Sequence record: MT862763.1
Source of the DNA: Escherichia phage vB_EcoP-U8
DNA length: 40,294 nt
Reading direction: 5' to 3' (one strand)
The notes beneath the pieces are model-generated. The model saw only the letters and a list, made by a program, of their open reading frames with translations, searched no databases and had not been told where the DNA came from. Both the position numbers and the translations under genes were made by a program. Below are positions 2,114 to 9,838 of this stretch, in pieces. Within the stretch, counting starts at the first letter, position 1, and every line of letters begins with the position of its first letter.

Positions 2114-4795
2114 TTAAGCGAATGCAAAGTCTGAAGACAAGATGTCTTCGATATTCAGTTTACCTTTCTTCGGAAGCTCAGGCAACTTGTCTCTCTGGCT
2201 CTCGTGAAGCTGGTATTCAAACTGCTCGTAGAAGTCAAGCAGCACATCGTTGTCGCGGTAGGTCTCGACCATCGTCTCACGGACTCCACGGAACAGATAC
2301 TCAGCGTCAGCCGGGATGGTCCCGAAGCTATCGTGAATCACTGCGAATGACATCACGCCATATTTGCGGTGCGTGTGTACTACAGTCTTGCGGAGGTGGC
2401 TACCATCTTGTGAGTGGACGAAGTTCGGGCTAATGCCTGACTCCTGCTTGTGCTTGTCCAGCTCTTTCTTCGTGCCTTTGTTGACGGTAGGCTGAAGGTT
2501 GAATGACCCTAAGAACATCAGGTTCAGACGAGTGGTGTCCTTCTTGCGGTATTCCTGCCAGACAGGGAAACCATCAGGTGTGACCCAGTGTACCGGAAGA
2601 CAAGGCTTCAGGATTTCTCCAGTCTTCTTGTCCTTCACTTCAGCAGCAAGCAGCTTGGCAGCACCCTGAAGCCATTTCATCGCGTCAACCGCAGCAACTA
2701 CGGTCACACTCACAGCTTCCCAAATCATCTTAGCCATGAAGCGAGATGCTTGGCTTGGTTCAGTGAACATAGCGCCAGACCCTGAGTCAATCGCTGGCAT
2801 CACGATGTCCTCGTAAACTTGGTCTGCGAAGCCGTACTCTTTCGACCCGTAGGCCAGAGTCATGACCGAACGCTTAGTGACCTTTCGTGACATACCGTAG
2901 GTCAGCCACTGACGGGCAAGCTCTCGTGTCCCCAGCTTGAGACGCTCGGTAATCTCACCAGTTTTCTTGTCCTCGTGAGTTACCATCTCGTTGTCCGTAC
3001 CGTTAACCAGTAGGACTTTAAGCTCCTCCTCAATGCGGTCAGACACGATGCGGTAGATGTCTTGGACCTTACCGGATGGCGTCAGGTTTACTGCATGTCC
3101 ACCGATGTGGTCGCGAAGCATAGCGCTGAAGTGCTGAATCCCAGAGCAGGACCCATCGAACGCTATCGGCAGCGAGCAGGAGTAAGACAAGCCGTGGTGC
3201 ATTACGCCAGCATACTCGAAGCAGAACGCTAGGAAGCAGAACGGAGAGTCTAACTTGCCCCACCACTCAATGCTATCCATCGGTGCCTTGGCAGCAGCCA
3301 TGATGTTGTCGTGGTTATCTTCCACCCACTTGATACGCTCCTCGAAGGTGACTTTATCGACACCCGCGCAGTTTGCACCGTGGACCTTCAGCCATTTGAA
3401 ACCATCAGCACCAATAGGCTTACCGACTGCCAGAGTCAGAAGACCCTTTTGCATGTCGTTACCCTGAGGGTTGAACATCGGCACAGCGTAGACGCGACCG
3501 CGCCAGTCCATGTTATACGGGAACCAGATGGCCTTGAACTGAGAGAACTTGTTCGCTTGGTTGACGATAAAGCTCAGTGACAATCTTCGTGACTGTCTGG
3601 CCTTCTCGCGGCGATAGATACCAGCAGCAGCCTTCTTCCATGCCTTGAGTTCTTCTTCAGTCTCACCCGCATAGTCCTCAGGCTTCAGCGGTTCCATCTG
3701 AGGGATGTCATCAATAGGCGTGTTGTTCAGCTTCTCGACCATGTTCACCACTTCCAGAACCTTCTTGTTCACTTTCCAAGGTGTATTCTGAATGATGTTC
3801 ACAGCGTCATAGACTTCAGGCATATACACGTCTTCGTAGCGTGCTACCGCAGACTTAGACCCTAAGCGAATCAGTGGTAATGGTCTGCGTCCTTTGGCCC
3901 AGTACCCACCGCCTACGACACCAGTCCACGGCTTAGGTGGAACGACGCAAGGCTGGTAGACTGGAGCTATACCCGCAAGGCTGAATCCTCGTTGTGCCAT
4001 CTTCTTGACCCAGAAGTCTGACAGGTGGACCATCTCAACGTCAGCCGCTGCATTGCCAGCACCGTAACGCTTAAGCTCGACCAGTTGTGTGGACTGGATG
4101 ACAATCTCCAGCATCTTGATTCCAACGTGGACAGCCTCGGTCGGACTCCAAGTCCCCCACGCATCTTCCAGTTGGCCTTGCTCCAGCATGGATGCCTCGA
4201 CCGCTTGCATGTAGGCTTTCTTGTAGGACGCCCCGGCCCGCTTATTCAGGTTATCAGCTATCGCCTTCTTGAAGTGCTCTTTCTCCTTGTCACGGATGCG
4301 ACCGAAGCGGATTTCGTCCTCAAGTGTGCGACCTATCGCTGAGGCCATCGGTGTAATCGGTATCCCTTCAGGCTTGACCAGCTTGGAGAGTATGACCTTC
4401 AGTATGATAACCGCAGCAGACTCGCAGGAGATGCGCAAAGAGCGGACCTTTACGGCCTTCTCTTCAGTGCTCAACATGGTGAACGCTACGCTCGGACGAG
4501 AGGTTGACAGCTTCCCGTCTGGACCTTCATGCCACTCCTTGACGGCTTGCGCAATCTTAGGGACCAGAGTCTGCATCAAAGGCTTGGCGACCTGATTGTC
4601 TGCCAGTTCCCCTCGCTCAGTCTGTCTCTCAAGGTTCTTGATGAAACGTCGCTCGCCTTCAGTGTATGCCTCGTGCTCAAGCTGAAGCTGTTTGACTGCA
4701 AGGTCTTGCCCGTAGTGGTCAGCCAGTAGGTTAAACGGCTCAATGGCGTTCGACACATCAGAGAAGTCGTGCTTGTCAATAGAGATGACGCTCAT
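2114..4795 (-). CDS. Single-subunit DNA-directed RNA polymerase (T7 gene 1-like)
   Basis: 893 aa; collinear with T7 RNAP as recalled (MSVISIDKHDFSD..., ...ILSSDFAFA C-terminus, NMDWRGRVYAV, HDSFGT motifs). Confidence 0.97.
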   Translation of the reverse strand: MSVISIDKHDFSDVSNAIEPFNLLADHYGQDLAVKQLQLEHEAYTEGERRFIKNLERQTERGELADNQVAKPLMQTLVPKIAQAVKEWHEGPDGKLSTSRPSVAFTMLSTEEKAVKVRSLRISCESAAVIILKVILSKLVKPEGIPITPMASAIGRTLEDEIRFGRIRDKEKEHFKKAIADNLNKRAGASYKKAYMQAVEASMLEQGQLEDAWGTWSPTEAVHVGIKMLEIVIQSTQLVELKRYGAGNAAADVEMVHLSDFWVKKMAQRGFSLAGIAPVYQPCVVPPKPWTGVVGGGYWAKGRRPLPLIRLGSKSAVARYEDVYMPEVYDAVNIIQNTPWKVNKKVLEVVNMVEKLNNTPIDDIPQMEPLKPEDYAGETEEELKAWKKAAAGIYRREKARQSRRLSLSFIVNQANKFSQFKAIWFPYNMDWRGRVYAVPMFNPQGNDMQKGLLTLAVGKPIGADGFKWLKVHGANCAGVDKVTFEERIKWVEDNHDNIMAAAKAPMDSIEWWGKLDSPFCFLAFCFEYAGVMHHGLSYSCSLPIAFDGSCSGIQHFSAMLRDHIGGHAVNLTPSGKVQDIYRIVSDRIEEELKVLLVNGTDNEMVTHEDKKTGEITERLKLGTRELARQWLTYGMSRKVTKRSVMTLAYGSKEYGFADQVYEDIVMPAIDSGSGAMFTEPSQASRFMAKMIWEAVSVTVVAAVDAMKWLQGAAKLLAAEVKDKKTGEILKPCLPVHWVTPDGFPVWQEYRKKDTTRLNLMFLGSFNLQPTVNKGTKKELDKHKQESGISPNFVHSQDGSHLRKTVVHTHRKYGVMSFAVIHDSFGTIPADAEYLFRGVRETMVETYRDNDVLLDFYEQFEYQLHESQRDKLPELPKKGKLNIEDILSSDFAFA

Positions 4796-4864
4796 ACTTA
4801 AAGTCCTTGTTATTAGTCTTTCACTTAAAGTCTCTTTGGTCTTTCACTTGGAGTCTTAGACCTT

Positions 4865-4887
4865 GAGTCCTATAGTGATAGTTAAGT
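4865..4887 (-). promoter_or_regulatory. Phage RNA polymerase promoter directly upstream of the RNAP gene
   Basis: Plus strand CCTATAGTGATAGTTAAG at 4869..4886; +1 about 75 nt upstream of the RNAP start codon. Confidence 0.65.
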
Positions 4888-4892
4888 CAGAA

Positions 4893-5219
4893 TTACTTGC
4901 ATATCAGCGGGTTAGCGTGGAGATGACTGAAGTCACCATGAGTCGTGTGCTTGATGGTTGACCGTTGGTCTATCGCCTTCCAGCCTGAGACTAAAAGTTT
5001 ACCATCGTCAGTGATTGGTCGTCCACCATACACCAGACACATTAGTTCGGACTTATGGCCCTCAGCCCGGAGTCTTGCTTGCAGTACCCGGTCCCGCTCC
5101 TGCTGTTGACGTGCGGAGTGACTTGACGTTCCGTGACGATACCCGGTAGCCAGTAGGCTTAACATTTGCATGTCTGCGTCCATAGAGTGTACCAGATTAA
5201 TCCCGTATGACTTGTTCAT
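4893..5219 (-). CDS. hypothetical early protein
   Basis: 108 aa ORF in early region; His-rich segments; no recognised family. Confidence 0.45.
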   Translation of the reverse strand: MNKSYGINLVHSMDADMQMLSLLATGYRHGTSSHSARQQQERDRVLQARLRAEGHKSELMCLVYGGRPITDDGKLLVSGWKAIDQRSTIKHTTHGDFSHLHANPLICK

Positions 5220-5593
5220 TACAGTTTGCTCCCAAGTGTTGCTATATCCCAGACGTTCGCTAAGTTACGCATGAATCGTCCGTTAGGTTGACGTACAGTC
5301 CAGCTACCCAGACGTACATATTTGAATTTGTAGACTTTACGCGCTTTGTTGATGTCTCTCACCAGCACGTAGGCGATAAGTCCATAGCCTATGGCTATCA
5401 ATAGTGCGATACTCATAGTCATAAGCCCCATAACAGTTGAGTAAGGACCGGTAGTTTGCAGACTAGAGTAAACATTCCCCACGCTACGAAGCCTGAGATA
5501 GTCCAGATGATTGCAGTGCTCATAGTTAACTCCTATTAATTCAAGTGGTAATCTTTGAGGCCACCTATCAGTCGATGACCTCTCGTCTATCAC
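5219..5593 (-). CDS. hypothetical early protein with predicted transmembrane helix (start uncertain)
   Basis: 124 aa ORF; hydrophobic stretch MSIALLIAIGYGLIAYVLV; a 33-aa alternative-frame ORF with strong SD overlaps near 5430..5531. Confidence 0.3.
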   Translation of the reverse strand: MIDERSSTDRWPQRLPLELIGVNYEHCNHLDYLRLRSVGNVYSSLQTTGPYSTVMGLMTMSIALLIAIGYGLIAYVLVRDINKARKVYKFKYVRLGSWTVRQPNGRFMRNLANVWDIATLGSKL

Positions 5594-5636
5594 TCAGTAC
5601 CCGCCTGTCAGCGTTATGGTCAGGCTGTGATACACG

Positions 5637-5792
5637 TTACTTATCCTCAGCGTGCAAACTGTCGTGTATGCGCTTGCGGCCCTCATAGACCGCTTTCAGG
5701 TGACGCATAGTCGCATCGTGGTTTAATTGCCCGGTCTTGACCATAAGCCGGGCGTTAGTGACGTGGTGCTGGCAGAGACCATAAGTTACCAT
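5637..5792 (-). CDS. hypothetical early protein
   Basis: ATG at 5790-5792 overlaps kinase stop (AGATGGTAA), suggesting translational coupling; 51 aa. Confidence 0.3.
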   Translation of the reverse strand: MVTYGLCQHHVTNARLMVKTGQLNHDATMRHLKAVYEGRKRIHDSLHAEDK

Positions 5793-6310
5793 CTTGATGA
5801 CCTCACCTCTTGCAGCTTGGACACAAGGAAGAAACAATCAACCAGTATCAACTTGCCATCCACAACCCGTACATTACGTGGGCTTATCTCAAACTGAATG
5901 TCTGACCCGAAGTTAGCGCAAGCGTCCAGCGCCATCATAACATCCATCAGGCCCTCCCGCACAGTCTCAGACTCAGACCTGTCGTGTGCATCTTGGAATA
6001 TCTCGTACCACTTGTGATACAGTTCGGCAGGTCGAGAGAATACCGGAGACCGTGAGAAGCAGTCTCGCAACACCTGATAGAGTTGCCATTGGTCATCGTC
6101 TAAATGCGCCTTGAGACCTCGTGTTGGTGGCATGTATTCCATCTCATATGTGCCTACCTCAATCATTTTGACTTCAGGGAACAGTGGAGACTCAGGGAAC
6201 CATCCCCACGCCATACACTCCTTGATTGGGTCTGAAGATACCAGAATCACACGCTTCCCGCAGTCCTTCAGGTAACACTTAGTGAATGCGCCTTTTCCGA
6301 TCAGTTTCAT
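5786..6310 (-). CDS. putative protein kinase, gp0.7-like but short (kinase domain only)
   Basis: 174 aa; N-terminal IGKGAFTKCY glycine-rich loop and VDGKLILVDCFF resemble T7 gp0.7 kinase region; SD AAAGGA 8 nt upstream. Confidence 0.45.
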   Translation of the reverse strand: MKLIGKGAFTKCYLKDCGKRVILVSSDPIKECMAWGWFPESPLFPEVKMIEVGTYEMEYMPPTRGLKAHLDDDQWQLYQVLRDCFSRSPVFSRPAELYHKWYEIFQDAHDRSESETVREGLMDVMMALDACANFGSDIQFEISPRNVRVVDGKLILVDCFFLVSKLQEVRSSRW

Positions 6311-6380
6311 CTTGTTTATCCTTTAGTTAGTGACTATCAGTCAGGCCGCTATCAGTCTAACGACCTGTAGTTAATCACTC

Positions 6381-6635
6381 TCAGTTAGCGAAATAAGGAG
6401 CTGAGACGCCCACTGTAGGACTCACGGTTATCTGCGAGTCTATCAGGTATGTCTCGTTGTCTATACGCACAGTATCGACGCTGTAGTTGCTGAACTGCTT
6501 GCTTGATACCTTGCGCACTACCACACGGTGACGCGCTCCTGTCATCTCTTTAAGCTGAATCCACGCATAACCTTTAGTGTTCACGAATACTTCATTGCGA
6601 TTAGTGATTGTGCTTAAGTGTTTCATAGTGTCCAT
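6381..6635 (-). CDS. hypothetical first early protein (gene 0.3 position; not Ocr-like)
   Basis: 84 aa ORF; start may be the Met at codon 4 (better SD spacing). Confidence 0.45.
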   Translation of the reverse strand: MDTMKHLSTITNRNEVFVNTKGYAWIQLKEMTGARHRVVVRKVSSKQFSNYSVDTVRIDNETYLIDSQITVSPTVGVSAPYFAN

Positions 6636-6804
6636 CCTTTAAGTTAGTGACTATCAGTCAGGGCCTTCAGATGTAGACTCAAAGGCCCTGTAGTTAGTCG
6701 CTATCGGCGCACATTAAGAGTTTATCCAGATTGTTAAAGAGCATTCCCTTCAGTCAGAGGACTTCAGGTAGACCGTTTCAGTGTCGGTCGTCACCGTTGT
6801 TTCG

Positions 6805-6843
6805 ATGTGGTACAGCTTACATCTTATCGTTACTGCTTGTCAA
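6805..6843 (-). promoter_or_regulatory. Candidate host sigma70 early promoter (T7 A2/A3-like architecture)
   Basis: RC reads TTGACA-N18-TAAGCT-GTACCACATCGAAAC, resembling T7 A3 (TTGACA...TACGAT GTACCACATGAAAC) as recalled. Confidence 0.4.
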
Positions 6844-7104
6844 CTACTTTCTGTCATCTGCCTGTTGTTCGTATGACTTATCAGGCTGTCTACTTAACCG
6901 GGATGACCAGGCGTCTTCACTATCCGGTTGTTGCCGTGTCGTGTTGACGGAAGCTATTAGGCCATAGTCTGGACCTATAGTCAATAGGTAATTTTAAATA
7001 ATATTGATTAAGCTATCGTCGGCCCCATGGTGTAAGAGGATGTAGTCTTTGACTAACATGTCTTAGACCTTAAGTCTATATCCTTGTGTCTATTAACGTA
7101 GGTC

Positions 7105-7185
7105 TCTGACTGTAGGTAGCGGCATTACCGATGGTCGATGACTGTAGGTAGTTAGACTGTAAGTAGTTAGACTGTAGGTAGTGAC
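7105..7185. repeat. Short tandem/direct repeats (GACTGTAGGTAG x4, last three at 15-bp period) in genome-end region
   Basis: Copies at 7108, 7140, 7155 (one mismatch), 7170; lies between gene 19 and the early promoters, where T7 carries terminal-repeat and CCTAAAG-type repeats. Confidence 0.6.
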
Positions 7186-7618
7186 TCAAGGTCTGATACA
7201 GATAGAGACTCAAAGAAGACCAATAGTCCCTACCTATCGTCTTTCCCTAAGCCATAGCCACAACCTATCGTTGACCTGAAGTCTTGACCATCGGTCTAAC
7301 CTTATGATAGACTGGGGTAGGGCCTTTGGTCTGGACTAAAAGAGGGCCTATGGGGAGACTTGAGGTTCTTGAACTGTGAGATGTGGTCTCAAACTTTTGG
7401 TCCAAAACTCATCGTCACTACTGTAGACCACAGCCACTGTAGGTCAATGACCGTAGGTCAGGCGACACTAGGATAGACCAATAAGTAGGATGACCCTAAG
7501 TGAGCTTCTCTTAAGGTGTTACCTAAAGTCCTTGACTACAGTAGCTAAGGTCAGTAGAGTAGCGTCAGCTATGAACTGACCTTAGGTCTTGCTTTCGTTG
7601 ATTGTTACCATTACGGCG

Positions 7619-7777
7619 TTAACGACACTCAGACACCAGAGAACATACGAGAGTCTCGACCCACCCGACCCACTGACTTCCAGCAGTAACGCCAGCAGCA
7701 AGTAGAACAGCAGCAAGAAACCTGTATGTAGCTCGATTGGTCGCCAGAGCTTTAAGTACAGCTTTGGTCTTTGCCAT
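7619..7777 (-). CDS. small hydrophobic ORF (gene 19.5 position)
   Basis: About 52 aa, MAKTKAVLKALATNRATYRFLAAVLLAAGVTAG...; SD AGGAGG 10 nt upstream; downstream of phiOR-like promoter. Confidence 0.3.
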   Translation of the reverse strand: MAKTKAVLKALATNRATYRFLAAVLLAAGVTAGSQWVGWVETLVCSLVSECR

Positions 7778-7957
7778 ATGCTACATACCTCCTGTATCTA
7801 TGGTCGGTGACTATCTGTATTGGAGGGATTATGATTAATATCACCCTCCTTCCATCGGTGCAAGCCTTAGGTAAGAACTCGGAGTCTGCCTCCTAAGGTC
7901 TTGCATAAAGTCTGCATATGTATATTCACTACAGTAATACTATAAGTAACCGGGGGT

Positions 7958-7980
7958 CTTCCCTATAGTGATAGTTAAGT
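7958..7980 (-). promoter_or_regulatory. Phage RNA polymerase promoter (phiOR position, after gene 19)
   Basis: Plus strand CCTATAGTGATAGTTAAG at 7962..7979. Confidence 0.7.
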
Positions 7981-8074
7981 CCAAACTCCTTGTAAAACAG
8001 TAGGTTAGACTGGTAGTAACTATAGGTTACTAACTGCGTATTCATGCAGCTTTCACCTATAGTTATTCATTCAG

Positions 8075-9838
8075 CTAGTGGAACGTAACGTAGTGCCCTA
8101 GTCCAAGCTCGTCGTCCGTATCGTGAGTTACCCGGACCCCATTGTCCCAGAACTCAGTGTGGATGGACTCGAAGCCTTTCCGTGGGTTCTCCATCTGTTC
8201 CTCCAGCCACTCCTCAGTGACTTCACGTTCTCCTTTGTTGGCATCCTTAGCCATAGACTCAACGAAGAACTGTACACCGATAGCCAGCGCATCAAGTCGG
8301 TCATCGTGTGCCAAGGCCCCACGTTCACGAGAGATACGGGTCATCTGATAGAAGAGAGAGTAGATAGGGTTACGAACACCATCCTTGTCAGAGGCTGTCT
8401 GGTAGTCTTGGACGATAGCAGCAGCGTTGACGATAAGTCGGTGAGACCCCATGATAGGCTCCAGAACGTCACAGATGCGGAGTTCTTTCTGACCCTTACT
8501 CTTCACTTCAGTTACAGCCGCAGGATGGATACGGGCCGCTACAGGCTTGAATAACTCAAGGTACATACCATCACCGAAGTTACCCTCAATGACGTATTCG
8601 TTGACCTTCCACTTACGACCAATCTTAGCCAAGGCTTCCAGAGTAGAGTCTTCATAACCACCACGCATACCGCCTACTTCCATAGCGAAGATGTAGCCGT
8701 TGAGCTGATACAGTACCGCATAGCCAGTTTCATCCTTACCACGACCACTAGGGTCAATGACCAGAATCTTCTGGGTGTACGAGCTGAAGGCAGAACCTAC
8801 AGTCTGATACGTGTGGTATGAGTCACCCATGAGTCCAACGTTAGGGACGTCCTCACGCTTGTTCTGAGGGTTAGGCAACCATTGGTAGACCATTGGACTA
8901 GACGCTGGGTCCAAGTCCGCTACGATAAGGTCACGGAGCTTCAGAGGGTACTTCTCAGCATCACTCAGGTTCGGGTTAAGCATGAACTGTAGAGCGAAGC
9001 CAGCTTTACCATAGGACAGCTCACGTTCCTTCAGGTCCGTATCATCGAATCGTACCTCATCGGTCGGACGCCAGTAGAAGGACTCAGGGTCCTCTTCCAG
9101 TTCTGCCTGAAGCATAGGAGCCAGACGGTCGCCGTAAGACTGCCAGTCCTTCCTGTCGCGTGGGTAACGAGCAGGCCAGATAGTAGTGGTGTACCCACGA
9201 CCTTCCAACTCACGGTACAGGGTCATCTCGTTCTGAGGAGTACCCAGATAAATGATTGTGCCTCCCGGCTTCAGGATAGCGTCGAACTCTTTCACAAGCT
9301 CTGACAGACGGTCTCGTGCAGCCTGAGTCGCAGAGTTATTAGGAACCTCCACGTCATCTGCAATCAGGATGTCAGCACGACTACCAGTCAACTGACCAGT
9401 GATACCAACAGACTTAACCGAAGGTGAGTGGTCTGGCTTGGCTGGCCCAACGTCGAAGCTAATAACAGCATCTCGCTGTCCCTGCTTAGGTTTGAGTTCC
9501 TGAAGCTGAGGCATGAGGTCGATGATTCGCTTGATGAATATGGAGTTAGCATCGGCTCGTTCCTTTGAGGCCGACACAATCATGAACTTCAAGTCTGGGT
9601 TGTTCCATAGTTTCCAGACCACGAATGCACACGTAATGAATGACTTCCCGATACCACGGAACGCCTGAAGGATGAAACGCCTGTTGTCCCCAGCCGATAG
9701 TTTCTTCGCCATGTCAATCTGACAGCGAGTCGGGACTGGGAGCGACAGAGCTTTCCACAGGACGAACAGGAAGAACACGAAGTCGGCCTTCATACGTGCC
9801 GTCATAAGCGCCTGACGCGCCGCTAAGTCTTGACTCAA
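8075..9838 (-). CDS. Terminase large subunit (T7 gp19-like DNA maturase B)
   Basis: 587 aa; collinear with T7 gp19 as recalled ([18 protein letters not shown] Walker A region, [19 protein letters not shown]). Confidence 0.95.

Follow-up and report, generated by a model that had tools for sequence, protein, structure and literature searches.

A minimal protein-kinase-like gene in the Ocr position of the predicted early region of Escherichia phage vB_EcoP-U8

The DNA considered here is sequence record MT862763.1 from Escherichia phage vB_EcoP-U8, a stretch of 40,294 nucleotides that was analysed at its full length and is referred to below as the window. At 40.3 kb it is the complete, circularly permuted genome of a K1F-like phage of the T7 group, genus Kayfunavirus, and every gene in it lies on the minus strand. 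Positions 4893-6635 are exactly the coding block that runs from the promoter zone to gene 1, which encodes the phage RNA polymerase (RNAP). From its sequence layout this block can with good reason be taken as the class-I early region, or early operon, of the phage. It holds six genes, here designated gA to gF, each supported by the sequence of the window and by the annotation of relatives. The notable item among them is gB, which encodes a member of an uncharacterised, widespread mini-kinase family and alternates with the gene for Ocr, the T7 gp0.3 protein.

Genes of the block

The first-pass annotation, made from the letters alone, had counted five open reading frames (ORFs). The corresponding mechanical ORFs of 84, 174, 66, 124 and 108 amino acids (aa) do exist, but the real count is six genes, listed here in order of transcription.

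6381..6626, minus strand: gA, 81 aa, first early gene, phrog_10124; the ribosome-binding site (RBS) AAAGGA lies 8 nt before the second ATG, and relatives annotate 81 aa
5786..6310, minus strand: gB, 174 aa, stand-alone minimal protein-kinase-like protein, phrog_11084, in the Ocr slot
5637..5792, minus strand: gC, 51 aa, gp0.4 family; its start ATG overlaps the gB stop (ATGGTAA)
5419..5523, minus strand: gD, 34 aa, small hydrophobic protein with a single transmembrane (TM) segment; RBS TAGGAG; annotated in relatives
5219..5431 or 5219..5422, minus strand: gE, about 67-70 aa, N-terminal TM helix and basic tail; equivalent to K1F '0.6', phrog_2385
4893..5219, minus strand: gF, 108 aa, phrog_7066, EcoDS1 Gp0.38 family; TAATG overlap with gE

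The true start of the 84-aa ORF is its second ATG, which gives the 81-aa gA, and the 66-aa ORF, which begins with TTG, is replaced by the 51-aa gC starting at ATGGTAA. The 124-aa ORF, which begins with GTG, is read as gD plus gE because K1F and two other relatives have a stop codon 1-4 codons before gE, B1 and SD6 have lost the GTG start, and gD is conserved (85-100% among relatives). The start of gE is probably the ATG at 5422, which overlaps the gD stop. Judged from their overlaps, gB and gC are translationally coupled via ATGGTAA, and gE and gF via TAATG.

The block is ordinary for the genus, and many deposited genomes hold its genes as 'hypothetical proteins'. Scans against Pfam, NCBIfam and PADLOC give no useful family match for the six proteins, and a PHROG search of the block proteins returns only families of unknown function. 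The Pfam-A set that was scanned lacks PF27024 and PF26807 (T7 gp0.7 and gp0.4 themselves go unmatched), which voids those two negatives; statements on these domains rest instead on precomputed Pfam annotation of relatives. The first-pass description of the genes as unassigned holds for the orphans gA and gF, but not for gC, which belongs to the gp0.4 family of FtsZ inhibitors.

A kinase-like gene in the Ocr position

Ocr is a DNA mimic and acts by binding. As the first-pass annotation had stated, no ORF resembles it: BLASTP and tblastn find no Ocr in the whole window, whether the query is that of T7 or the 168-aa Ocr of Kayfunavirus. No block protein matches phrog_2568, the Ocr family, and the isoelectric points (pI) of the block proteins, 5.45 to 10.76, are not those of an acidic, Ocr-like DNA mimic.

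What takes the place of Ocr is best seen by comparison with the Ocr-type phage vB_EcoP-22664BS1. The two genomes are 95% identical between 8100 and 6326, where a hairpin ends, unrelated over gB, 86% identical over gC from 5793 and 98% identical from 5631 onward; vB_EcoP-22664BS1 has an additional 75-aa gene relative to the window. The same hairpin precedes Ocr in that phage, and the sequences diverge right after it. By this alignment gB is a precise cassette alternative to Ocr in the gene-0.3 slot.

The gB-gC module is ~92% identical to that of phage SD6. Contigs with an identical gF allele and enough upstream sequence, on the other hand, all carry Ocr (PF08684), gp0.4 (PF26807) and then the 75-aa gene. 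The window thus has an LM33_P1-like backbone and an imported gB-gp0.4 module. The same gA-gB-gp0.4-gF-RNAP order is found in a 39-kb metagenomic contig. In a sample of 17 early regions, which is not a census, six are of the gB type and have no Ocr (the window, SD6, B1, Dagda, and the contigs L015 and L026), and 11 are of the Ocr type and have no gB (22664BS1, K1F, T7 and contigs L016-L023).

A separate observation concerns database labels. The Ocr homologue is mislabelled 'protein kinase' in several GenBank records (for example MH400309 Vec13, MN176574 IME335, MG004687 mutPK1A2, MN026740 C2 and KP090454 P694), which could confuse a text-based census of phage kinases.

Predicted fold and active site of gB

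The first-pass annotation had described a kinase-like protein of 174 aa, and this description is borne out by the predicted structure. An AlphaFold2 (AF2) model of gB, built from a 39-sequence alignment, is confident (predicted local distance difference test, pLDDT, 95.4; predicted template-modelling score, pTM, 0.89) and shows a bilobal protein-kinase-like fold with kinase topology through the DFG position. The order of elements is three N-lobe strands, a short helix, two strands, three long helices, a strand-loop-strand-strand unit and a last helix. The protein ends 16 residues past D158, and the model has no activation segment and no substrate-binding C-lobe. A Foldseek search against viral models returns a family member first, followed by small phage kinase-like proteins and giant-virus kinases, with a probability of 1.00. 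Single-sequence and profile searches of the PDB with gB give nothing significant.

Conservation was scored over 151 representatives with 30-56% identity to gB. The glycine loop, I-G-K-G-A-F-T, is well conserved, with G5 in 143/151, G7 in 148/151 and F9 in 145/151. The catalytic loop reads F-E-I-S-P-R-N, where E141 is present in 151/151 and N146, the Asn at +5, in 149/151. A metal-binding Asp of the DFG type, D158 (150/151), follows 12 residues after N146 and is itself followed by C or V and then F160. Two canonical residues are absent. The beta3 (VAIK) lysine is missing, position 23 being L, I or V across the 151 sequences (with one gap), and the catalytic-loop Asp (HRD) is absent from the family, all 151 members carrying Glu141 at this position. 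A second lysine, K30, lies in the helix after beta3 and is Lys in 147/151 and Arg in 3, and may substitute for the beta3 lysine. The near-invariance of the Glu, Asn, Asp, glycine loop and K30 at such low identity argues for an active site that is working but atypical, rather than decayed. We consider gB likely to be an enzyme that depends on nucleotide and works through a kinase-type active site.

Relationship to the T7 kinase

The first-pass annotation had taken the kinase for a shortened T7 gp0.7 (T7K) without its host shut-off domain. It looked in the right place, but its identification of the kinase was wrong. No T7 gp0.7 homologue is found in the whole window by BLASTP or tblastn, gB has no pairwise BLAST match to T7K, and hhalign gives a probability of only 5-7% in three runs. 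Precomputed Pfam annotation shows PF27024 in none of 120 gB relatives and in every T7K relative. The PHROG matches are also distinct, gB matching phrog_11084 only and T7K matching phrog_2828, 15752 and 18305.

Descent of gB from gp0.7, with the kinase domain kept and the C-terminal shut-off/DNA-binding domain lost, does have some evidence behind it. The two proteins share a fold class, and neither has a C-lobe after the DFG-like Asp. In one hhalign run gB 5-151 is colinear with T7K 68-206, with GxGxF and F[ED]xxxxN in register, and the local hhalign score of 26 exceeds those of 20 column-shuffled controls (<=18). With richer profiles, only the 21-column glycine loop is aligned. Against this reading stand the low hhalign probability, the absence of PF27024, the different PHROGs and motifs, and the location of gB in the 0.3 slot rather than before gene 1. 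Dickeya phage Dagda carries both genes: a gB homologue, gp02 (51% identical), and, in its 0.7 slot directly upstream of RNAP, a separate 351-aa T7K homologue, gp05 (E 1e-45). A truncated gp0.7 orthologue is thus largely refuted, and we consider it very improbable.

Family size and distribution

An exhaustive profile search places 792, 491 and 207 clusters at 50% identity in the gB family at E<=1e-3, 1e-10 and 1e-30, respectively. Nearly all members are single-domain proteins of 156-200 aa. The longer members (201-297 aa) have no match in the Pfam-A scan and so give no domain-fusion clue. The gene occurs in 83 sequenced phage records from unrelated groups, which include Kayfunavirus, 44-46-kb Klebsiella phages, Dickeya Aarhusvirus, phage Seurat, a Cellulophaga phage, and ~98-kb and ~173-kb Pseudomonas phages. 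In Dickeya Aarhusvirus the homologues are sometimes annotated 'serine/threonine kinase'. The published census of T7K homologues was made with T7K-family (PHROG 2828) profiles only, at E<1e-10; gB would not be expected in it, because gB has no match to the PHROG 2828 family.

A gp0.4 homologue downstream of gB

The gene that overlaps the end of gB is a member of the gp0.4 family by sequence comparison. Over 41 aa, gC is 39% identical to T7 gp0.4 (pairwise E 1.5e-5), and it matches phrog_7202 at 2.3e-5 while T7 gp0.4 matches phrog_5058, the family of gC, at 9e-5. A protein 90% identical to gC carries PF26807 (Phage_T7_GP04, E<=1e-5), as do 49-51-aa homologues in other contigs. The gene lies directly after, and overlaps, the gene in the 0.3 slot, which is also the placement of gp0.4 after Ocr in T7, K1F and 22664BS1.

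The residues through which T7 Gp0.4 contacts FtsZ have been validated by mutagenesis as V15, V22, W28, M32, L35 and Y39 (PMC13423816). Five of the six (V15, V22, M32, L35 and Y39) are kept in gC, and W28 is replaced by His. In T7 Gp0.4, the changes W28L and W28A abolish FtsZ binding and toxicity (PMC13423816). As a member of the gp0.4 family, gC is a probable FtsZ inhibitor.

Infection by K1F gives multi-ring filaments, and Dhanoa et al. reported that K1F lacks gene 0.4 and that its inhibitor is unknown (PMC9372555). The K1F orthologue of gC is an unnamed 49-aa protein, YP_338091.1, which is 80% identical to gC and is the obvious candidate for the K1F division inhibitor.

The remaining genes

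The two genes downstream of gC encode small membrane proteins. Each has a clear TM segment, with a Kyte-Doolittle value of 1.82 over residues 4-22 of gD and 2.35 over residues 6-24 of gE. The first-pass annotation had placed a TM helix in one ORF; the hydrophobic segments are real, but belong to two membrane proteins. The PHROG search gives no match for gD. In sequence, gE is 92% identical to K1F 0.6.

The 5' part of the mechanical 124-aa ORF raises a separate point. Its residues 1-27 (window 5513-5593, minus strand) match phrog_36394 (E 5.5e-16), which implies that a short ORF has been called at this position in other phages. It is unlikely to be a real gene here, since the start is lost in B1 and SD6 and the segment overlaps gD; it also overlaps a hairpin.

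Homologues of gA occur in 118 phage records and, in 4/4 relatives whose annotation was inspected, lie in early-type gene blocks. The homologue is the first early gene in Klebsiella Przondovirus, sits between the RNAP-subunit genes of the N4-like Gamaleyavirus, lies near 3 kb in PGT2, a phiKT-like phage, and, in a Pseudomonas phage of ~150 kb, is one of a series of small hypothetical genes. Many residues of gA are invariant. Single-sequence and 7-sequence profile searches of the PDB give no match for gA, and a homologue search with gA and gF concatenated gives gF matches only. In-frame stops interrupt the homologues in SD6 (L003, 985-1227), for which only a 66-aa gA product is annotated, and in Shigella phage pSb-1 (L011, 301-519), so the gene appears dispensable or decaying in some lineages.

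The last gene, gF, is confined to Kayfunavirus-like phages, with 221 records that are all annotated as hypothetical. It has a conserved C-terminal part of ~80 residues and a variable N-terminus. Structure prediction, suggested in the first-pass annotation for every ORF and informative for gB, yields a poor AF2 model of gF (pLDDT 65.5) with a helical core at residues 33-88. A fold search of BFVD and profile searches with gF return only its own family, and PDB searches give nothing significant. A relationship of gF to the gp0.7 shut-off domain was considered and rejected, there being no similarity (E 0.8).

Relatives differ in their annotation and content. The K1F record NC_007456 (L006) leaves unannotated a gA homologue (96%) at 785-1027 and a homologue of the C-terminal part of gF (88%) at 2262-2465. 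Between gp0.4 and gD, the Ocr-type relatives L001 (2823-3050) and L016-L023 have an extra 75-aa Cys-rich gene, phrog_32657, which the window lacks. B1 and SD6 have an additional 62-aa gene (phrog_336) between gA and gB. These extra genes indicate that several slots of the operon are variable.

Promoters and hairpins

The features that surround the block, or lie within it outside the genes, are as follows.

2114-4795, minus strand: phage RNAP gene, downstream boundary of the block; 893-aa ORF, annotated as RNAP in relatives
4869..4883, minus strand: first phage-RNAP promoter, AACTATCACTATAGG, between gF and gene 1; downstream end of the putatively host-transcribed block
5557..5582, minus strand: possible gC-gD intercistronic hairpin; weak (fold of 5524-5640, z = -2.3, 5/200 shuffles as stable)
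6329..6379, minus strand: hairpin module preceding gB, which bounds the exchangeable cassette on the left (z = -3.5, 0/200 shuffles as stable)
6645..6703, minus strand: long irregular hairpin upstream of gA, resembling an RNase III site (z = -4.4, 0/200 shuffles as stable)
6814..6843, minus strand: sigma70-like early promoter TTGACA-18-TAAGCT, -35 box at 6843; homologous to T7 A3
6956..6984, minus strand: sigma70-like promoter candidate TTGACT-17-CCTAAT from a relaxed scan, -35 box at 6984
7420..7447, minus strand: sigma70-like promoter candidate TTGACC-16-TACAGT from consensus scans, -35 box at 7447
roughly 6640-7600, minus strand: genome ends and early-promoter zone
7619-7777, minus strand: gp19.5-like gene (context)
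8075-9838, minus strand: large terminase gene (context)

The local alignment of the promoter at 6814..6843 with T7 A3 covers the GTACCACAT start region. The phage promoter sequence occurs at 11 sites in the window where 0.96 would be expected, all on the minus strand, and none of the 11 lies within 4893-6635. The cistrons of the T7 early region are separated by RNase III sites, which the hairpins before gA and gB resemble. These two hairpins have in common a 24-nt element, comprising the 3' arm and RBS, that is 96% identical (repeat families D4 and D11). Scanning 4700-8100 against Rfam gives no match. The three upstream sigma70-like promoters, the lack of an internal phage promoter and the hairpins before gA and gB suggest early expression. 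They agree with the location in the early region that had been proposed from the sequence in the first pass.

Three further observations concern repeats. Immediately ahead of the RNAP gene itself is a perfect phage-RNAP promoter, inside a 52-nt repeat at 4869-4920 (minus strand) whose other copy, 79% identical, is at 7962-8013, after the terminase gene. T7 is not known to have a phage promoter ahead of its gene 1. Should this hold, the promoter here could allow autostimulation of RNAP or read-through across concatemer junctions into the early genes. In the left-end non-coding zone, 7140-7184 (minus strand) consists of three tandem 15-nt units similar to GACTGTAGGTAGTTA, with a fourth copy at 7108-7122. 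Repeats of 28 nt are present at 7092-7119 and 7124-7151. All these direct repeats, within 7092-7192, are close to the expected genome ends.

Possible function of the gB protein

The best explanation of these observations as a whole is a class-I early operon in which gB is a kinase-like enzyme in the place of Ocr, and we give it about an even chance of being correct. The host RNA polymerase would transcribe the block from the sigma70 promoters at the left end of the genome. RNase III-like hairpins would divide the operon into cassettes, several neighbouring genes being translationally coupled. The gB protein would bind ATP-Mg through its GxGxF loop, K30, N146 and D158 and, with E141 as the catalytic base, transfer phosphate to at least one host target in the first minutes of infection. 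It would thereby fill the place of the DNA mimic Ocr as an alternative first-line counter-defence or host-takeover function, alongside gC as a gp0.4-type inhibitor of FtsZ and gD and gE as small membrane proteins. The position of gB in the 0.3 slot makes an anti-defence role plausible. That gB serves in counter-defence, in a role equivalent to that of Ocr, is a tentative proposal, to which we give somewhat less than an even chance.

Several points weigh against this explanation. The family has no beta3 lysine, and Glu replaces its catalytic Asp, so gB could be inactive or act on something other than a protein. Because gB and T7K are both present in Dagda, gB probably does something that T7K does not. 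Depletion of Ser, Thr and Tyr has been reported for phages that encode T7K (PMC13645617). By a crude test it is not seen in the early proteins (0.164 vs 0.158 genome-wide), which argues mildly against hyperpromiscuity of the T7K style. Early timing is read from the layout of the sequence, and the equivalence of the gB and Ocr slots is guilt by position, drawn from only 17 early regions. A literature search found no study of the gB family.

The peculiar active site also suits other readings of the protein. A small-molecule or nucleotide kinase or transferase, of the aminoglycoside phosphotransferase (APH) or choline-kinase (ChoK) type, could act on a host metabolite, an immune signalling nucleotide or an envelope precursor. 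Fold searches with gB return aminoglycoside, spectinomycin and corramycin phosphotransferases and choline/ethanolamine kinases as well, and the missing activation segment and substrate-binding C-lobe, the unusual catalytic Glu and the lack of Ser/Thr/Tyr depletion in the early proteins are all in keeping with such an activity. However, T7K, NleH and OspG phosphorylate proteins although they, too, are without these C-lobe elements, and the 174 aa of gB show no insertion for substrate binding of the kind typical of APH or ChoK; we regard this reading as unlikely. Less probable still is a dead pseudokinase that acts by binding in the manner of Ocr, whether it sequesters nucleotide like a sponge or targets a host defence or housekeeping protein, as its decoy or stoichiometric inhibitor. 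Pseudokinases usually degrade the active-site motifs of kinases. The absence of the beta3 lysine and catalytic Asp fits this possibility, as does the replacement of Ocr, a pure binder; and from T7 biology high expression would be expected of a gene in first or second position (gB is second here and in Dagda). The invariance of the Glu, Asn, Asp, glycine loop and K30 across divergent members is nevertheless the signature of a working site.

The block as a whole might also be ordinary, dispensable early cargo whose genes adjust host physiology (division, envelope, transcription) solely to improve yield. It includes a putative division inhibitor, gC, whose T7 counterpart raises progeny (PMC9372555), two small membrane proteins, gD and gE, and a gene, gA, that is interrupted by stops in SD6 and pSb-1 and so may be dispensed with. 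Cargo of this kind does not readily account for the exact replacement of Ocr by gB, nor for the wide lateral spread of gB and gA among the early regions of unrelated phages, which is typical of arms-race genes, and we find it rather unlikely. An early operon with gB as an enzyme in the place of Ocr is accordingly the explanation that we prefer. A broader proposal is that the gB family (phrog_11084) is a second, previously unrecognised class of phage early kinase, with a Glu-based centre, a relocated lysine and no DNA-binding domain, serving as a swappable alternative to Ocr against restriction-type or other defences. We consider it doubtful.

Implications

Kayfunaviruses serve as therapeutic phages, and the identity of the anti-defence cassette that they carry bears for this reason on host range. 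Phage kinases (T7K, JSS1_004) have recently proved to be anti-defence weapons with a broad spectrum. If gB is active, kinase-based counter-defence would extend beyond T7K, and a very small module (174 aa) would be available for phage engineering. If gB is indeed swappable with Ocr, phages could use it to avoid systems that sense Ocr, such as PARIS. Ocr triggers PARIS and Gp0.4 triggers CapRel-Ebc (PMC13423816), which offers a rationale for exchange at the 0.3 slot. For K1F, gC and YP_338091.1 together provide a concrete candidate for the FtsZ inhibitor that was reported as unknown (PMC9372555).

Comparison with known systems

The nearest whole-block comparison is with the early region of K1F, which has the same backbone. 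The K1F counterparts are 96% identical for gA, 80% for gC, 92% for gE (K1F '0.6') and 88% for the C-terminal part of gF. K1F differs in having Ocr where the window has gB, and gp03, a different small membrane protein of 55 aa, where the window has gD. T7 gp0.4 and gC have the same length (51 aa), the same position after the gene in the 0.3 slot and reciprocal hidden Markov model (HMM) matches. They differ in sequence, at ~39-43% identity, and in the contact residue W28, which is His in gC.

Among small kinases, NleH1 and OspG are type III secretion effectors that act in eukaryotic cells and have the canonical Lys and Asp. They show no sequence similarity to gB, and differ from it in retaining these two residues.

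T7K and JSS1_004 are the phage precedents. Like gB, they are products of early genes of Autographiviridae with a protein-kinase-like fold, a GxGxF loop, an x-x-x-x-N catalytic loop and a metal-binding Asp, and have almost nothing after the DFG-like Asp. The T7K motifs are VIK, FDMHSGN and DPV (PMC13645617), where gB has V-x-L, FEISPRN and D-C/V-F. Unlike T7K, gB lacks the N-terminal 70 residues and the C-terminal shut-off/DNA-binding domain, and is encoded in the 0.3 slot whereas T7K lies just upstream of gene 1. T7K and JSS1_004 disarm DNA-targeting defences through promiscuous phosphorylation, and the shut-off domain drives the bias of T7K towards DNA-bound or nucleic-acid-binding targets (PMC13645617, PMC12345140). 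The DNA-binding shut-off domain that JSS1_004 requires in vivo (PMC13645617, PMC12345140) is the one that gB does without.

The closest parallel in position is Ocr itself (T7 gp0.3; PF08684, phrog_2568). There is no sequence or structural relation between the two proteins, Ocr being highly acidic and gB having a pI of 5.45 and an enzyme-like active site. However, Ocr and gB share the slot, the hairpin module upstream and the coupling to gp0.4 downstream, and they are mutually exclusive in 17/17 early regions inspected.

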